From positions 52,204,001 through 52,268,000 of the forward strand of contig OX597821.1 in NCBI GenBank assembly GCA_951406725.2: a DNA stretch of 64,000 bases, given 5' to 3'. The first letter of the stretch is position 1. Each line of letters opens with the position of its first letter. This document shows, one piece after another, positions 8,227-53,185 of this stretch. The notes under the pieces were generated by a model. The model searched no databases, was not told the DNA's origin, and was given only the letters and a program-made list of their open reading frames with translations. This DNA comes from Octopus vulgaris. Its lineage: Eukaryota. The position numbers and the translations under genes are program-made.

Positions 8227-8238
<12 letters not shown>

Positions 8239-10240
8239 AAACAAGTAAAAAATAGAAAATGCTAAAATAATTTTATAGTGAACATTTCAGTACCGGTTTC
8301 GGTCATTTTGAGACCTTTTCAACTGTAACGATTAAATAATTAAATTTAGAAAAATTAGAAGAAAAGTTTTTTTAAAACAATATTTCTATAGTAGTGTTCA
8401 GATTTAAGTGGCATTCTGCCTTTCTCTGACTCCCTTGTTTGCACTTGTGTGTTCGAGGTAGTTGTGAGTTCTTGGTAGGGTAGTAGAGGGAAGGCTGGTG
8501 AGGAAAGGGGGTGGGAGAATCTGGGAGTGCCCTGATGGTCGTATTTTGAATGGTCAGTGGCGGCTGGCAGTCTCAGTTCAATTCAGGAGAATATTTATAT
8601 CGACAGGCTTGTTTATAGAATTAGCGTAGGTGTTATACTAAAAAACATTAGTGACAAACTTAAGGGGTAGGGGGTGGAGAAGAAGAAGAAGAAGAAGAAG
8701 AAGAAGGAGAAGGAGAAGGAGAAGATGATGGTGATGGTGGTGATGATTATGACGACGATGATGATGATAACGATGATGATGAAGAAGAAGAAGAAGAAGA
8801 AGAAGGAGGAGAAGGAGAAGATGGTGGTGATGATGGTGGCGATGATGATGACGCCGATGATGATGATAACGATGATGATGAAGAAGAAGAAGAAGAAAAA
8901 AACAGAGAAGGGAGAATATGAATGGGTGTAAATATAGCTATGAAGGGGCTGATTAGTAATGGATTCTATGGAGTGTAGTATTTGTGTGTGTATATATATT
9001 TTTTTCTTTTATTCTAAAGTTGAGGTATATTAATTGTTTGTCGTAGACCCGTTAAGAAGTGGCTTGTATTTTGTAATAAAGAGATTTTCTTTACTTATTC
9101 TTTGTCTCGAGGTTGTATCGTCCCTAAATTGGTAGAGGGGGAAAATTCTGAAGTTTGGTGTTTTTTGTTGGCGCAAGTATCTATGTGTTGGCTAAAAGCT
9201 ATTTTTCTGTTTTGGGGAATTTTTATCTGGGATCTGTGCAGGGCCATTCGTTTACGCAAACCATTTTTTGTTTGGCCTATGTACTGCTCTTGACACCCGG
9301 AGCAGGTTAGTGAGTATATTAGGTTCTCCGAAGCACATGTGAAGTTGCTTTTCACTGTAAACCGTTGTCCCTGTTTGAAGGAGAACTCAGAACCCTCGAT
9401 TAGATAGTCGCATATCCCGCAATTGGGTCTTCCACATTTTTTTACTGTCGGCTTCTGTGTTGAAGAGTGAATTCGGGCTTGTGTAAGGAGACTTTTCATG
9501 GATCTAGGCTGTCTTTTGCTTTTTATGATCGTGTGTGTTTGGAGGATTGTGTTCATTCTGTGGTCTTTTTTTAGGAGGGGTATGTTGTGGAGGATGGTGT
9601 CGAAGGCTTCGTTATTGAGAGGGTTGTGTGTGGAGATGTATGGTAAGGCTTTTGGTTGTAAGTTTTTCTTTGATTTGGGATGTCTCAGTTCCTTGATGTT
9701 AAGTTGAAGGGCACGTTGAATGCACTTGTCAATAAGTGAAGGTGGATAGTTCCTGGTGATTAGGGTATCTTTTAGTTCTTGTAGTCGTGTGTCTCTGGTG
9801 TTTGCGTTAGAGACTATAGTGCATATCCTTTTTGCTAGATTGAAGGGGATATTCATCCTGGTGTGTCTGGGGTGGCATGAATTGAATGGAAGATATTGCT
9901 TAGAGTCTGTAGGCTTATAGTATATGTCTGTTTCTATTATATTATTAGCTTTCTTAATGAGGATATCGAGGAAGGGGAGTTGTTGTTGGCTATATTCCAT
10001 CGTGAATTGGATGTTTACGTCCAGTCCGTTTAAAATTTTCTGGAATTCTATGAGTTTTTCTATATTTTTATGCCAAAGGATGAAACAGTCATCTAGATAT
10101 CTCTTCCAGTTGTTTTCTATGTAGATGGAGAAAGGGCTGCCATATCTTTCTAGAACCTTACGATACAGACTGATCTCTAGGTATCCTATGACTAGGTTGG
10201 CAAAGGAGGGGGCCATTCGTGTACCCATCGCAGTCCCCGA
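8227..10240 (-). pseudogene. Inverted, 5'-truncated second PLE copy (RT C-half, GIY-YIG, 3' UTR, pLTR)
   Basis: Near-identical reverse complement of 12837-14853; a 1-nt shorter homopolymer (T6 at 9161-9166 vs A7 at 13911-13917) frameshifts the endonuclease end. Confidence 0.95.
8283..8330 (-). ncRNA. Hammerhead ribozyme copy in inverted pLTR
   Basis: Exact reverse complement of 10359-10406. Confidence 0.82.
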
Positions 10241-10270
10241 ATGCCACTTAAATCTGAATGCCACTTAAAT

Positions 10271-10491
10271 CAGAATGCCACTTAAATCTGAACACTACTA
10301 TAGAAATATTGTTTTAAAAAAACTTTTCTTCTAATTTTTCTAAATTTAATTATTTAATCGTTACAGTTGAAAAGGTCTCAAAATGACCGAAACCGGTACT
10401 GAAATGTTCACTATAAAATTATTTTAGCATTTTCTATTTTTTACTTGTTTTTTCATATATATCAACTCGTGTGTTCCTTTTCACCCTTATA
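10271..10491 (+). repeat. 5' pseudo-LTR of the PLE
   Basis: Matches 14661-14882 except for the length of one A-run. Confidence 0.93.
10359..10406 (+). ncRNA. Minimal type I hammerhead ribozyme, U3-A8 core variant (5' pLTR)
   Basis: CAG-TTGAAAA-GGTC-tcaaaat-GACC-GAAA-CCGG-TA/CTG. Stem I CAG/CTG (extendable to cgttacag/ctgaaatg), stem II GGTC/GACC, palindromic stem III ACCGGT, GUA site; predicted cut after 10398. Confidence 0.82.
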
Positions 10492-10521
10492 CATATCATT
10501 AACCCACACGAGATACAGAAA

Positions 10522-11757
10522 ATGCCGACAAAAACAGACACAATCACCTCCATAAACGAAGAAATACTGAAAGAACTCAAGAAAATCAACACAAATTTGT
10601 CAACTTTTTTGAACAAATTCGACTCGACACTTCAACCCAATCGAGAGAACAATGAAGAAACAGATACGAAAAATACAACCTCCGAAATTGTCGAAAACCT
10701 TGGAAACTTATGCGAAACAATTAGAACATTTTTCTCTAACAACGCTAACCAAGGACCTCCAAACGCGTCAATATATGGGATCAATACTCTAACAACATAC
10801 CAAATGAAACACCACATAATACCACAATGGAACAAATCACTCAGAGATAGAAAGTTCGCCTTTTGGAAGATGATCCAAAACAACAACAAAGCGGATATAT
10901 ACGAAAAATGGCTCAACCGGACCCCGTTAATCCTCCCACGTAAATTCCAGTTCAAAGCTATTACAGAAGAACCTGAAACACAAAGACACCTCAGGGAGAG
11001 AATGGCACTGGAAAAAATGAAAATGGAAATAGAACTTCTGAAATTGAGGGCCCAAACGAATGAGGATAAAATAAAATCCACCGATGAAGATATCAACGAA
11101 GAAATTCGCAAAATGACCCAAGGCCCAGATCAAGAGAAGTTCTCCAAACTATGGAAAGAGGACTGTGAAAAAGAAGAACTAAAATCTCTCCAACGCTGGG
11201 AGAAAAGCGCCACTTGGTTCTCAGACTATGAAGCCGTCTTTCAAACAGAGCACGCCTCCAACAACCCTTTCCAGAAAATAAGAAAACCAAAACAACACCC
11301 AAACACCGATACACACCTGTCTAAAAATCGGAACCTTCACTACTATCAAAAAAAGAATACAGGACCTAACCCCAACTCTGTAAGCAGCCAGCGATACAAT
11401 ATCAGGAATACCCCCACTTCAAGCAGAGAAAGGATAAATCAACACCCACAGCATAGACACTACAACCTCATCCCCACCCAAAGGAGTTACCAACGAAATC
11501 TTCGTCCCATTAACCGGTTAAACAACCATGCACAACAAACCCACACCACTTGCAATGATTACCAACGAAGGCCTCCTAGAACACCACACCCGAATATGGG
11601 ATATCGGGATGCTCTCCTCAATACTGCTCCAAGAACACACACCACAAATCACAACAGGAGACCCCTAATCAACAAAGAACAACTATATACTAGCTACCGT
11701 CCCAACCACCGCATTCATTTTTTAGACCCAATACGCAAACACAGAGACACAAGATAG
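10522..11757 (+). CDS. PLE ORF1, 411 aa from ATG 10522: predicted coiled-coil protein with basic, low-complexity C-terminus
   Basis: Uninterrupted ORF between the 5' pLTR and ORF2; heptad-like segments (INEEILKELKKINTNL; ALEKMKMEIELLKLRAQTNEDKIK); R/N/H/P/Q-rich tail. The track start at 10471 is a GTG inside the pLTR. Function is inferred. Confidence 0.85.
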   Translation: MPTKTDTITSINEEILKELKKINTNLSTFLNKFDSTLQPNRENNEETDTKNTTSEIVENLGNLCETIRTFFSNNANQGPPNASIYGINTLTTYQMKHHIIPQWNKSLRDRKFAFWKMIQNNNKADIYEKWLNRTPLILPRKFQFKAITEEPETQRHLRERMALEKMKMEIELLKLRAQTNEDKIKSTDEDINEEIRKMTQGPDQEKFSKLWKEDCEKEELKSLQRWEKSATWFSDYEAVFQTEHASNNPFQKIRKPKQHPNTDTHLSKNRNLHYYQKKNTGPNPNSVSSQRYNIRNTPTSSRERINQHPQHRHYNLIPTQRSYQRNLRPINRLNNHAQQTHTTCNDYQRRPPRTPHPNMGYRDALLNTAPRTHTTNHNRRPLINKEQLYTSYRPNHRIHFLDPIRKHRDTR

Positions 11758-14048
11758 CACCAAACAAGCAGGAGGAACCAAAAGTAATAAAAATTATTAA
11801 TCTAACTCACAAGGAACTAACAGCAAACCAAATAAACATACTTTCCAAAGGACTCAAGTTTACACCCACCCCACAACACCCCAACTACAATGAAATGAAA
11901 GAAGACATCGCAGAATTCTGCAGAAAATTAAAACTTACTGAGGAGCTATACGATAAATACAACGAGGACGAATCGTTAGCCAGAAATACGAGTAACTACA
12001 CCCCCTCGAAAGGTAAGAATAAAACACTTGATGATTTCTGTGACCACATATCAAATTACCCATATCAACATATGCACAAACAAAAACACAAACCAAACTT
12101 CAGCAAAAAAGAATGGGCTGAGTTGAACAAATTAAAACTAGATAAAACAATAACAATCAAAGAGGCCGATAAAGGGAGTGCTGTTGTCTTAATGGATACG
12201 ACATTTTACATAACTTTGGTACTTTCTATGCTGGAAGACACAACATACTATGAAAAGGCACAAAACTACAGTCAACAAAAAATAATGAGGGAACTAAAAT
12301 CCATATTAAACCCATACAAAGCAGGGCTCACCGACAAAGAATATGATTATATGACCAATTTCACAAGTAAAACTAGCCAATTCTACGGTATACCTAAGAT
12401 CCACAAAAGTGAAAAAATAAGCAACGCATGCAAGATAGCTACAGACAAAATAATTAAAGTCCCTAATCCTAATGACCTCAAATTGAGACCCATAATAGCA
12501 GGTCCCGCATGCGAAACCCACCGCCTCAGTAACTTTTTAGACACCCTGTTAAAACCACTCCTCAAACATGTCAAAAGCTATATAAGGGACGACTTAGATA
12601 TGCTCAATCACCTACCGAATACTATAAACAAAAACACCATACTGGTATCCTTCGATGTAGTCAACCTCTACTCCAATATCCCCCACAACCTAGGACTAGA
12701 GGCAATCCAATTCTGGCTAGAGAATCACGCCAACGAACTACCACACCGCATCAAAAAAGAATTTGTGATAGAAGGGGTTAAATTCATCCTGGAAAATAAC
12801 TTCTTCGCCTTCAATGACAACTTCTACCGACAAAAATCGGGGACTGCGATGGGTACACGAATGGCCCCCTCCTTTGCCAACCTAGTCATAGGATACCTAG
12901 AGATCAGTCTGTATCGTAAGGTTCTAGAAAGATATGGCAGCCCTTTCTCCATCTACATAGAAAACAACTGGAAGAGATATCTAGATGACTGTTTCATCCT
13001 TTGGCATAAAAATATAGAAAAACTCATAGAATTCCAGAAAATTTTAAACGGACTGGACGTAAACATCCAATTCACGATGGAATATAGCCAACAACAACTC
13101 CCCTTCCTCGATATCCTCATTAAGAAAGCTAATAATATAATAGAAACAGACATATACTATAAGCCTACAGACTCTAAGCAATATCTTCCATTCAATTCAT
13201 GCCACCCCAGACACACCAGGATGAATATCCCCTTCAATCTAGCAAAAAGGATATGCACTATAGTCTCTAACGCAAACACCAGAGACACACGACTACAAGA
13301 ACTAAAAGATACCCTAATCACCAGGAACTATCCACCTTCACTTATTGACAAGTGCATTCAACGTGCCCTTCAACTTAACATCAAGGAACTGAGACATCCC
13401 AAATCAAAGAAAAACTTACAACCAAAAGCCTTACCATACATCTCCACACACAACCCTCTCAATAACGAAGCCTTCGACACCATCCTCCACAACATACCCC
13501 TCCTAAAAAAAGACCACAGAATGAACACAATCCTCCAAACACACACGATCATAAAAAGCAAAAGACAGCCTAGATCCATGAAAAGTCTCCTTACACAAGC
13601 CCGAATTCACTCTTCAACACAGAAGCCGACAGTAAAAAAATGTGGAAGACCCAATTGCGGGATATGCGACTATCTAATCGAGGGTTCTGAGTTCTCCTTC
13701 AAACAGGGACAACGGTTTACAGTGAAAAGCAACTTCACATGTGCTTCGGAGAACCTAATATACTCACTAACCTGTTCCGGGTGTCAAGAGCAGTACATAG
13801 GCCAAACAAAAAATGGTTTGCGTAAACGAATGGCCCTGCACAGATCCCAGATAAAAATTCCCCAAAACAGAAAAATAGCTTTTAGCCAACACATAGATAC
13901 TTGCGCCAACAAAAAAACACCAAACTTCAGAATTTTCCCCCTCTACCAATTTAGGGACGATACAACCTCGAGACAAAGAATAAGTAAAGAAAATCTCTTT
14001 ATTACAAAATACAAGCCACTTCTTAACGGGTCTACGACAAACAATTAA
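11694..14048 (+). CDS. PLE ORF2: reverse transcriptase + GIY-YIG endonuclease (frame open from 11694; first ATG at 11895)
   Basis: Motifs IINL..LSKGLKFTPTP (upstream of first ATG), IKEADKG, LRPII, LVSFDVVNLYSNIP, QKSGTAMGTRMAPSFANL, WKRYLDD, LPFLD; Cys linker CGRPNCGIC; GIY-YIG NLIYSLTCSGCQEQYIGQT..R...H..KE....N. No internal stops. Confidence 0.97.
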   Translation, partial: LPSQPPHSFFRPNTQTQRHKIAPNKQEEPKVIKIINLTHKELTANQINILSKGLKFTPTPQHPNYNEMKEDIAEFCRKLKLTEELYDKYNEDESLARNTSNYTPSKGKNKTLDDFCDHISNYPYQHMHKQKHKPNFSKKEWAELNKLKLDKTITIKEADKGSAVVLMDTTFYITLVLSMLEDTTYYEKAQNYSQQKIMRELKSILNPYKAGLTDKEYDYMTNFTSKTSQFYGIPKIHKSEKISNACKIATDKIIKVPNPNDLKLRPIIAGPACETHRLSNFLDTLLKPLLKHVKSYIRDDLDMLNHLPNTINKNTILVSFDVVNLYSNIPHNLGLEAIQFWLENHANELPHRIKKEFVIEGVKFILENNFFAFNDNFYRQKSGTAMGTRMAPSFANLVIGYLEISLYRKVLERYGSPFSIYIENNWKRYLDDCFILWHKNIEKLIEFQKILNGLDVNIQFTMEYSQQQLPFLDILIKKANNIIETDIYYKPTDSKQYLPFNSCHPRHTRMNIPFNLAKRICTIVSNANTRDTRLQELKDTLITRNYPPSLIDKCIQRALQLNIKELRHPKSKKNLQPKALPYISTHNPLNNEAFDTILHNIPLLKKDHRMNTILQTHTIIKSKRQPRSMKSLLTQARIHSSTQKPTVKKCGRPNCGICDYLIEGSEFSFKQGQRFTVKSNFTCASENLIYSLTCSGCQEQYIGQTKNGLRKRMALHRSQIKIPQNRKIAFSQHIDTCANKKTPNFRIFPLYQFRDDTTSRQRISKENLFITKYKPLLNGSTTNN
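11718..11724 (+). promoter_or_regulatory. Candidate -1 ribosomal frameshift slippery heptamer T_TTT_TTA
   Basis: In ORF1 phase (CAT TTT TTA), inside the 64-nt ORF1/ORF2 overlap 11694-11757; ORF2 is in the -1 frame. Alternatively TTTTTTAG is a splice acceptor. Confidence 0.65.
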
Positions 14049-14179
14049 TATACCTCAACTTTAGAATAAAAGAAAAAAATATATATACACACACAAATAC
14101 TACACTCCATAGAATCCATTACTAATCAGCCCCTTCATAGCTATATTTACACCCATTCATATTCTCCCTTCTCTGTTTT

Positions 14180-14402
14180 TTTCTTCTTCTTCTTCTTCAT
14201 CATCATCGTTATCATCATCATCGGCGTCATCATCATCGCCACCATCATCACCACCATCTTCTCCTTCTCCTCCTTCTTCTTCTTCTTCTTCTTCTTCATC
14301 ATCATCGTTATCATCATCATCGTCGTCATAATCATCACCACCATCACCATCATCTTCTCCTTCTCCTTCTCCTTCTTCTTCTTCTTCTTCTTCTTCTTCT
14401 CC
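14180..14402 (+). repeat. Composite (TTC)n/(ATC)n/(TCC)n simple-repeat block in the PLE 3' UTR (mirrored at about 8675-8897)
   Basis: Seen directly; internally duplicated block present in both PLE copies. Confidence 0.9.
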
Positions 14403-14660
14403 ACCCCCTACCCCTTAAGTTTGTCACTAATGTTTTTTAGTATAACACCTACGCTAATTCTATAAACAAGCCTGTCGATATAAATATTCTCCTGAATTGA
14501 ACTGAGACTGCCAGCCGCCACTGACCATTCAAAATACGACCATCAGGGCACTCCCAGATTCTCCCACCCCCCTTTCCTCACCAGCCTTCCCTCTACTACC
14601 CTACCAAGAACTCACAACTACCTCGAACACACAAGTGCAAACAAGGGAGTCAGAGAAAGG

Positions 14661-14875
14661 CAGAATGCCACTTAAATCTGAACACTACTATAGAAATATT
14701 GTTTTAAAAAAAACTTTTCTTCTAATTTTTCTAAATTTAATTATTTAATCGTTACAGTTGAAAAGGTCTCAAAATGACCGAAACCGGTACTGAAATGTTC
14801 ACTATAAAATTATTTTAGCATTTTCTATTTTTTACTTGTTTTTTCATATATATCAACTCGTGTGTTCCTTTTCAC

Positions 14876-14882
<7 letters not shown>
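14661..14882 (+). repeat. 3' pseudo-LTR and tail of the PLE
   Basis: Direct repeat of 10271-10491; ends CACCCTTATA, merging into (TA)n. Confidence 0.93.
14750..14797 (+). ncRNA. Hammerhead ribozyme copy in 3' pLTR
   Basis: Identical to 10359-10406. Confidence 0.82.
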
Positions 14883-51761: not shown

Positions 51762-53185
51762 GGCGTAGGAGTGGCTGTGTGGTAAGTAGCTTGCTTACCC
51801 AGTGCACCCCAGTGGCCGCAGGTAAAATGACCCTCCCCGACTTTTTGAGGATGGCTGGCTCCAGGTATCCTGTGATTCTGGAGTTCGCCCACCCAAGTGT
51901 CACTAGTGCCGGGAGTCAGGCCATGTCAAGAAGGACTGCCCCCGGGGCCGTGGTAAGGCTCCAGAGCAGGAAAAGGGGAAGGTGCCCTCAGCTCTCCCAT
52001 TGCAGGGAGAAACGGAGGAAGTCGTTGAGTTGTCGACCTCAACGAGAACAAAGAGAAATATGAGCAACGGTGATTGCTCACCAGGAGACGTGCAGGTTGC
52101 GGGAGAGGAGGAGGATCCTTCGGATATGCCGACGGAGGCCCCGACTCCCGTAACCGACAGAAGAAGAAAAAAGAGGAAGAAGAGAAACGGGGGAGGGTCA
52201 CCGGATGTTGCTGTGCCGTCGACCGAACCCGATGTTCCTCCGGTGGGAAGTGTGCCACCGGAGCGAGAGGCTCTGTCAGTGGGAAATGTGCCACTGATAG
52301 AGCAGGATGAGACCTCTCTTTGTGAAGAAGTGGTTGTCATTCTCTATCACAAGGGAGGGCCTGTGGAGTTATACTTGAACAGTCTACTAGACCTAAAGCG
52401 ATATGACCCGACCTGTATAGACTGTCCAAGTTGGCCTCTCCAGGTGGCTGTGGAGGTCATAAATCAGAAAGAGCTGATTGAAGTCGAGTGGACCTGTAAC
52501 AAAGAGGATTTTGTTTTCCTCGGTCCAGGCCTGCCGATGCAGGCTTCCCTGCAGGCAGGCTTCCCTGCAGGCGGCAGAAAACTTACTTGAGGGCCCGGAT
52601 GAGGAAGACGAAGAATAATGAAAAACATTTTTTTGTAATTTGTAATTTTAATTTTTGAAATCATAATTTTGATTTACATTGATTTAAATTGAACAGTGAT
52701 TTCGAGGGGTTATCGGTCGGCGGGCGCCGGTGCCCCTCCCATTATTATTATTTTTGTCCATCTTTGTCGTTCTCATTCACATTAATGTCTCTGTTCATCC
52801 CGCAGCTACCTTTATCTGTGTACGACCTTCATGGTCAATTCAATGAAATAAAGTAGCTTGCTTACCAACCACATGGTTTCGGGTTCAGTCCCACTGCGTG
52901 GGAGCTTGGGCAAGTGTCTTCTACCAAAGCCTTGTGAGTGGATTGGTAGAAAGAGGTCCGTCATATATATATATGTGTGTGTGTATGTTTGTCCCCCCCC
53001 CACATTGCTTGACAACAGATGCTTGTGTGTTCACATCCCCGTAACATAGCGGTTCGGCAAAAGAGACCGATATAATAAGTACTAGGCTTACAAAGAATAA
53101 GTCCTGGGGTCGATTTGCTCGACCAAAGACGGTGCTCCAGCATGGCCACAGTCAAATGACTGAAACATGTAAAGGAGTAAAAGAG
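51762..53185 (+). mobile_element. Family A SINE interrupted by the 51800-52850 insertion
   Basis: Head at 51762-51799 resumes at 52851. Confidence 0.85.
51800..52850 (+). mobile_element. 5'-truncated ORF1-only L1/Tx1-like non-LTR insertion with a 16-bp TSD, splitting a SINE
   Basis: TSD AAGTAGCTTGCTTACC at 51784-51799 and 52851-52866; zinc knuckle C-H-*-C-RESG-H-VKKD-C at 51898-51939 in frame with the 202-aa ORF 51982-52590; about 260-nt 3' UTR; no ORF2. Confidence 0.8.

Follow-up and report, generated by a model that had tools for sequence, protein, structure and literature searches.

Penelope-like elements (PLEs) are relatives of telomerase. Their canonical endonuclease-bearing members (EN+ PLEs) are described as having a single open reading frame (ORF) in the available text of Craig et al. 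(2021, PMC8557442), and the legend of Fig. 1 in the same paper states that in PLEs a frameshift with a pseudoknot can set ORF1 apart; a coiled coil (CC) is marked there and the clade is not named in the legend. For a killifish Neptune element, the accessible part of the report gives two non-overlapping ORFs of 420 and 2004 nt, an ORF1 with no database match and no claim of a frameshift (PMC12602865). The element considered here lies in a 64,000-nucleotide stretch of the Octopus vulgaris genome (contig OX597821.1, positions 52,204,001 to 52,268,000; hereafter the window, whose own numbering is used throughout). Its ORF2 encodes a reverse transcriptase and a GIY-YIG endonuclease (RT-EN), which are probably made as a 1175-aa fusion with the ORF1 protein through a -1 ribosomal slip on the heptamer U_UUU_UUA at 11718-11724. 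The frameshift and pseudoknot clade of the legend is presumably the EN-minus Athena/Terminon group of bdelloid rotifers.

Like the PLEs of that legend (PMC8557442), the window element has an ORF1 with a coiled coil, which a predicted frameshift links to a PLE RT; unlike them, it carries an endonuclease and has no predicted pseudoknot. It resembles Neptune, to the extent described in PMC8557442, in its RT, its CX2-5CxxC linker and a GIY-YIG domain with two cysteines between the motifs, as well as in pseudo-long terminal repeats (pLTRs), which here have weak hammerhead-like matches, an inverted 5'-truncated copy and (TA)n targets. It differs from Neptune as described there in having a conserved stand-alone ORF1 ahead of RT-EN, with RT-EN in the -1 frame. 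The heptamer is identical to the slippery site of HIV-1 gag-pol (accessible text of PMC7618472) and, as in gag-pol, a putative structural ORF stands upstream of an RT-bearing frame in -1. In contrast to HIV-1, where a stem-loop serves as stimulator, the next 30 nt of the element contain one U and no predicted fold, and ORF1 has neither the zinc knuckle of Gag nor a Pfam match.

ORF2 occupies the -1 frame relative to ORF1. After a TAG at 11691-11693 it is open from 11694 to 14048 (784 aa), with 67 codons preceding its first in-frame ATG at 11895. The N-terminal motif of PLEs, from IINL (11793) to LSKGLKFTPTP (ending at 11873), falls before this ATG. The two ORFs overlap by 64 nt, and this overlap contains a phased X_XXY_YYZ with the downstream frame in -1, as expected of a frameshift signal. 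Within the coding part (10522-14045), T_TTT_TTA at 11718-11724 is the sole T6A heptamer. When the overlap was shuffled 20,000 times, any phased X_XXY_YYZ appeared in 6.4% of the shuffles and a phased T6N in none. The frames, the overlap, the ATG-less codons, the position of the motif and the phase of the heptamer had been reported in an earlier note on this DNA, and all of its coordinates hold. The same note had proposed a 411-aa coiled-coil ORF1 protein and a fusion of about 1175 aa; the length is borne out (401 + 774 = 1175 aa) and the N-terminal part of ORF1 matches designed coiled coils in a profile comparison (E 3.5e-6). According to this model, most ribosomes would terminate at 11755, giving a 411-aa protein with a coiled coil and a basic tail, while a minority would slip by -1 on the heptamer and continue into RT-EN. 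The slipping minority would set a gag-pol-like ratio of ORF1 protein to fusion; both this ratio and the frameshifting itself are what we infer from the sequence.

A break between two frames may also arise from an assembly error or from a dead copy of a single-ORF element, in which case Phe-Leu (FL), as encoded by TTT TTA in the ORF1 frame, would merely be a protein motif. The description of canonical EN+ PLEs as single-ORF elements (PMC8557442, as far as its text is available) speaks for this explanation, as does the fact that roughly one in three ORF2 homologs has a long N-terminal extension, with total lengths of up to 1007 aa. The copies in the genome, however, leave it almost no probability. 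A scan of the 2.8 Gb genome, with junction copies counted by exact pattern, returned 132 junctions with exactly T6 and two with T7. Thus, two overlapping ORFs in place of the canonical single ORF are present in 132 of the 134 junction-bearing copies, and the frame break is genuine, not the homopolymer indel that the earlier note had considered. The two T7 copies have ORF1 and ORF2 fused in frame but are 5'-truncated inside ORF1. All 30 of the best copies fetched were letter-for-letter identical at the junction, and these copies of family A (the element of this window; B, C and D are three sister families in the same genome) were 99.5-100% identical over the junction-bearing stretch. An assembly error or dead copy is refuted by these 30 identical junctions and by the counts of T6 and T7. 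Judged from copies that are >99.3% identical, family A is intact, young and recently active. The same frame break is found in families B, C and D and in L101, a distant locus discussed below. Nothing similar to this ORF1 is present in the long single-ORF relatives, and the ORF1 profile matches only 4 of 110 ORF2 hits, all of which are bivalve gene models.

Those four bivalve models (P0213, P0224, P0225 and P0181) hold ORF1-like and RT sequence in one protein. The joined models probably arise from predicted introns across the frame break and are a source of mis-annotation. A second group of related RTs (part of P0209-P0276) is much extended in frame at the N-terminus, to as much as 1007 aa in total, with a GxFVS-x-NVVNLS motif; the extension is not similar to this ORF1, and the group is regarded as a single-ORF sister lineage. 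Two loci with long ORF1 frames, L075 and L076, were considered as fusions and rejected, as the frames are read in from (TA)n. The window copy itself stands alone among the 30 fetched, differing from the other 29 at two ORF2 positions, 11932 and 11989.

Families B, C and D were found by an ORF1 search of the genome and their ORF2 proteins are 67, 71 and 57% identical to that of family A, respectively. All three keep T6AG in the Phe-Leu phase together with the -1 offset. Among 13 loci of family B, ten have T6, one has TCTTTT and two were unmatched; T6 is present in 4/4 loci of family C, and in 14 of the 17 loci of family D, the other three having T5. Between families, the ORF1 core has pS values of 0.64-0.81 and pN values of 0.16-0.30. 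Since the heptamer is retained although synonymous sites are saturated, it is conserved beyond the need of coding, as would be expected of a frameshift signal. With the codon usage of each family, the chance of finding the three codons in B, C and D together is ~2e-6. Three of the family D copies (L084, L085 and L098) have lost one base from a run of C shortly before the heptamer, which shifts ORF1. Two of these look near-identical, which may point to copying of the variant in trans.

The comparison was extended to distant homologs with an ORF1 profile search, which identified 816 clusters at E <= 0.001. Statistics were taken from the 91 proteins of >= 290 aa among the 152 obtained. FL occurs within the last 45 aa in 72/91 homologs, where 7.8 are expected from shuffling; in the two preceding 45-aa windows it occurs in 4 and 5 homologs. 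Five further homologs have FF, and 14/91 have neither FL nor FF. None of the 72 FL motifs is preceded by K, E, Q, M or W, which have a background frequency of 21% and precede 58 of 220 other Phe residues. These five are precisely the amino acids with no codon ending in U, the base that U_UUU_UUA demands there. Taken together, FL and the bias of the preceding residue read as the footprint of U_UUU_UUA in these protein sequences. As the ORF1 profile itself contained FL, a check for bias was made: 41 of 70 FL motifs lie outside the stretch matched by the hidden Markov model (HMM), and FL is still present in 28 of 35 proteins whose profile match ends at least 30 aa early, so profile bias does not explain it. 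The alignment of related families that the earlier note had called for therefore gives a phased heptamer kept in four genome families and its footprint in ~80% of near-full-length distant homologs. Among the best 150 of the 816 ORF1 hits, ORF1 is never longer than 541 aa and no fused ORF1-RT protein was found; none was found either among 66 candidates of 1373-3920 aa, a weak test.

L101 is a distant DNA locus whose ORF2 is 40% identical. It carries an ORF1 homolog and has both the phase of T6 and the -1 offset in common with the window element; its ORF2 opens one codon before the T run, with no Met ahead of the N-terminal motif. The locus came from a genome scan with the ORF2 alignment that gave 23 loci, of which L101 alone had an ORF1 homolog. 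Two metagenome scans, one genome scan with the ORF2 homolog P0184 and one viral scan yielded no DNA of the distant ORF1 homologs. L101 is likely a eukaryotic contaminant in a bacterial metagenome-assembled genome (MAG). Other PLE RTs are likewise located on contigs of bacterial MAGs (L102-L123), P0184 being assigned to the MAG of a gammaproteobacterial symbiont, and eukaryotic contamination is most likely for these as well. Four ORF1 homologs that lack FL (P0021, P0036, P0046 and P0125) have (D/Y/N)-F-R at a similar distance from the stop, possibly indicating a different slippery heptamer.

The T run and the bases that follow may also be viewed as a 3' splice acceptor (TTTTTTAG at 11718-11725), with a spliced RNA that is missing most or all of ORF1 encoding ORF2. 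An AG follows the T run in all four genome families, the next residue is encoded by a codon starting with G in 51/72 homologs, and 5' introns are documented in PLEs (PMC8557442, available text). ORF1 also contains a donor, GTAAGC at 11380, that would give in-frame joins to the AGs at 11693, 11744 and 11771; families B, C and D lack an equivalent of this donor, and a consensus-like phase-2 donor inside ORF1 is found in none of the four families. In 21/72 homologs the next residue is Y, S, N, P, L, R, W, H or F, none of which can start with G. L101 has no AG after its T run, and a splice site would need no ORF1 phase. Splice joints were looked for in contigs of 8 runs (24 were listed), none of them on record as RNA and all only guessed to be so, which makes for a weak test: no splice joint was present at the junction, including the use of AG 11724-11725 that the earlier note had raised, and at least six runs bridge the junction unspliced. 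Splicing is considered a very improbable source of ORF2.

Slippage of RNA polymerase II on T6, adding a U, would place ORF1 and ORF2 in one frame in a minority of transcripts and is rated slightly lower still. The T7 of the two fused genomic copies and the T5 of three of the 17 family D loci show that the run slips at some step. Polymerase slippage needs no codon phase, yet the ratio of FL to FF is 72:5. T7 has not spread beyond 2/134 copies, and no insertion at 11718-11723 was found in the same contigs, which drop rare variants.

The earlier note missed one point: in the sister families B and D, an ATG of the ORF2 frame stands where the ORF1 stop lies in this element. As a result, reinitiation stays alive as a minor rival, improbable yet ahead of the two preceding ones, in which ORF2 would be a separate protein started at or near the ORF1 stop, from the AUG in B and D and from a near-cognate AUA (11754-11756) in A. 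The U6A run would then assist this process or offer an additional route alongside it. Reinitiation is a known route to LINE-1 ORF2 and to proteins of caliciviruses. The ATG is 30 nt past the last base of the heptamer in 10/11 matched B loci and 17/17 D loci, with ATA in A and in 4/4 C loci, and in B and D it precedes the N-terminal motif such that a full-length RT would result. Five close ORF2 relatives (P0168-P0172) have a Met start 7-9 residues before KPK(I/V), Trp occupies the corresponding codon in four ORF1 homologs (P0001, P0003, P0006 and P0007), and the mode of ORF1 stops ten codons past the heptamer would fit a fixed stop-start overlap as well. Against this, the ATG is missing from A and C, two intact families of which A is young. 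Among homologs that read through codon 11, Trp is present in 4/53 and Cys in 0, from which most cannot have an AUG there, and 4 of the 24 homologs that stop at codon 11 cannot have one either. The lack of a Met ahead of the N-terminal motif in L101 is a further difficulty, and a phase-locked U_UUU_UUA with FF as its main variant is left unexplained. From these sequences, ORF2 could be made separately in a B/D-type subclade.

Frameshifting on the heptamer is the best explanation of these observations, and several others weigh against it. The G after the heptamer is retained in all four families A-D and, judged by the next residue, in 51/72 homologs. An ATG stands before the N-terminal motif in B, D and probably the five close ORF2 relatives. 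The L101 heptamer, T_TTT_TTG, has a non-canonical last base and belongs to a copy with a stop in ORF1. The evidence from homologs is at the level of protein, with DNA for five families only. Some of the 14 homologs without FL and FF are probably partial, at least one of the FL motifs counted (P0051) may be there by chance, and FL may partly reflect a motif of the protein. Finally, families A-D have no predicted stimulatory structure, which is unusual for -1 sites as portrayed in the accessible text of PMC7618472.

The usual -1 site has a spacer of 5-9 nt followed by an RNA structure (PMC7618472, accessible text). The earlier note had seen no hairpin downstream of the heptamer, in agreement with folding energies of 0.0 to -2.9 kcal/mol over 40-90 nt in family A, with z > 0. 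Across families A-D, no stimulatory structure was predicted 5-9 nt downstream (z > 0 at 40, 60 and 90 nt; pseudoknots are outside the model). Long-range pairing of the spacer was rejected, as the best duplexes fall at different places in each family. What recurs is the distance to the ORF1 stop. Following FL or FF, the stop is closer than 10 codons in 0/77 homologs and at exactly 10 codons in 24/77; the spacing is 10 codons in the window and in C, 11 in D, 19 in L101 and 20 in B. The ten-residue tails share 1.0 of 10 residues on average (0.73 when shuffled), so their length is kept without their sequence, and the linker upstream of FL varies from 94 to 201 aa.

With the Leu codon in the A site, the ORF1 stop is 33 nt ahead, A site to A site. 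At yeast stop codons, disomes of 58 and 61 nt have been described as two 28-nt footprints 2 or 5 nt apart (Zhao et al., PMC7784341, in the part available), which were converted here to offsets of 30 and 33 nt, the latter being the spacing of the element. With E. coli reporters, Smith et al. (2019, PMC6815119, available text) showed that trailing ribosomes slip by -1 more often on a slippery heptad when a slow stop follows it by 8-10 codons. Like those reporters, the element has a structure-free slippery heptad one ribosome length upstream of a stop; the reporters (PMC6815119) are engineered and bacterial and peak with a 9-codon spacer, whereas the present case is natural, eukaryotic, has 10 codons and is known from sequence alone. 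The stimulator could then be a ribosome waiting at the ORF1 stop, one eukaryotic disome length (10 codons) past the site, with the trailing ribosome held while translocating on the slippery codons and thereby made to slip. Alternatively, the heptamer would slip at a basal rate or make use of another stimulator.

A queue at the ORF1 stop is a speculative stimulator and is judged less probable than not. In SARS-CoV-2, trailing ribosomes lower frameshifting (PMC8168617, available text). Of the ten-codon cases, 22/26 belong to a single clade of 35 rows, with this family among them (quick tree, SH-aLRT 98); this tree presents the ten-codon spacing as a retained state of a single clade, not as independent origins. 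Longer spacings are found in 53/77 homologs as well as in B, D and L101, and a queue alone does not explain the absence of shorter ones. Hints of excess stops near 20 and 30 codons are post hoc, come partly from related sequences and were not used. In the homolog tails, the third codon after FL encodes Gly in 28/77 and the second Gln or Arg in 35/77; in clades with long spacing, this may show where a G-rich stem begins, 6 nt past the heptamer.

The ORF1 protein may be considered in terms of an N-terminal coiled coil (aa ~7-75), a conserved all-helical core (aa 92-243) and a disordered basic tail (aa ~254-411) with 30 K+R against 7 D+E. An AlphaFold2 prediction made with 75 sequences placed helices at 7-37, 50-75, 92-132, 152-198 and 202-243; confidence was high over aa 100-250 (pLDDT mostly >90) and low in the tail (<50). 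A Pfam search with 75 ORF1 members gave no family matched by more than one member, and a search of the ESM Atlas with ORF1 gave no usable match. By analogy, ORF1 is probably an RNA-binding structural protein.

The coordinates of the element are collected in Table 1. ORF2 matches RVT_1 (E 3.5e-8) and GIY-YIG (E 3.8e-4, just under its cut-off) in Pfam. An RT with a C-terminal GIY-YIG domain and two Cys between GIY and YIG, combined with pLTRs and an inverted partial copy, is the composition of an EN+ PLE. The CX2-5CxxC linker of Neptune is present, as it is in 69/73 ORF2 homologs of >700 aa, and is shared with Nematis, hence not exclusive to Neptune. The element is therefore classed as a Neptune-type Penelope-like retrotransposon, a type assigned by motif. 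The EN-minus, telomere-associated Athena/Terminon type does not apply, given that GIY-YIG is present and copies sit inside many contigs. Rfam HH9 matches both pLTRs weakly (E=0.28, 19.7 bits against a gathering score of 52), and a minimal variant was fitted by eye; minimal U3-A8 hammerhead variants are known from PLE pLTRs (PMC4209133, accessible text). In this insertion, (TA)n abuts both ends, after the 3' pLTR and at 8227.

Table 1. Features of the Penelope-like element and its inverted partial copy in the window
Feature	Position	Strand	Remarks
Partial copy of the same element, inverted, 5'-truncated	8227..10240	-	3' part of RT-EN, 3' untranslated region (UTR) and pLTR; directly upstream of main copy; typical PLE insertion structure; inverted-repeat arms I1, I2, I3, I19 at 99-100%
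Penelope-like element, main copy	~10271-14880	+	Intact
5' pseudo-LTR	10271..10496	+	Repeated at ~14661-14880; BLAST of copies against element
Hammerhead-ribozyme-like motif, minimal, in 5' pLTR	10353..10417	+	U3-A8 core variant by eye, palindromic helix III
ORF1, 411 aa	10522..11757	+	ATG 10522, stop TAG 11755-11757
ORF2, 784 codons stop to stop	11694..14048	+	N-terminal PLE motif 11793-11873, first ATG 11895, RT, linker, GIY-YIG endonuclease
Slippery heptamer U_UUU_UUA, predicted -1 frameshift site	11718..11724	+	Phe-Leu (TTT TTA) in ORF1 frame
Spacer from slip site to ORF1 stop, 30 nt = 10 ORF1 codons	11725..11754	+	Unstructured, U-poor (1 U in 30 nt)
ORF1 stop UAG, then C	11755..11757	+	Overlaps ATA of ORF2 frame (11754-11756); ATG there in families B and D
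YLDD region of RT	12975-12989	+	Within ORF2
C-x4-C-x2-C linker	13641-13667	+	Between RT and EN in ORF2
GIY-YIG endonuclease core	13752-13802	+	C-x2-C between GIY and YIG
3' UTR with (TTC)/(ATC) trinucleotide arrays	14049..14660	+	From sequence; repeat family D17
3' pseudo-LTR	14661..14880	+	Second hammerhead-like motif 14744-14808; (TA)n follows

An ORF at 9095-10264 on the minus strand, taken from the ORF list, overlaps the inverted partial copy. Where the inverted and main copies meet (10241-10300), the start of the pLTR is present as three tandem 17-nt repeats, GAATGCCACTTAAATC(T/A), which suggests repeated template jumps or priming during insertion. Elsewhere in the window, a 227-aa open frame at 51907-52590 (+) opens with a weak zinc knuckle (Pfam zf-CCHC, E 0.043) and also contains the basic run RRRKKRKKR; it is probably a fragment of the ORF1/gag of another retroelement.

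With respect to novelty, on which the earlier note had urged caution, PLEs with a coiled-coil ORF1 set off by a frameshift have been published before (PMC8557442, Fig. 1 legend), and this part of the proposal is not new. As for a slippery site in an EN+ PLE, no description of one was found in the open literature, a coverage that leaves out most subscription papers, Repbase reports and two key Athena papers, and the site is not described in the accessible portions of PMC6431247, PMC3846280, PMC5408684, PMC5718144 and PMC4700185. A bolder proposal, that a large undescribed EN+ PLE lineage uses a natural, structure-free eukaryotic -1 frameshift with the terminating ribosome as its roadblock, kept exactly one disome length downstream in widely diverged families, is put forward tentatively, with the odds against it.

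Collision-driven -1 frameshifting has so far been demonstrated with engineered bacterial reporters, as far as the available sources go, and a site with no RNA structure, whose distance to the stop never falls below a fixed minimum, would provide a natural and easily tested eukaryotic case. If the queue at the ORF1 stop is real, RT output would scale with the ribosome load on the element's own RNA. As a young family with >130 junction-bearing copies, family A makes an intact element available for assays. With at least 816 ORF1 clusters that lack a Pfam match, and most of those examined appearing to end on an HIV-type slippery site, a gag-pol-like strategy would be widespread in EN+ PLEs, whose RT would then be routinely annotated without its true N-terminus.

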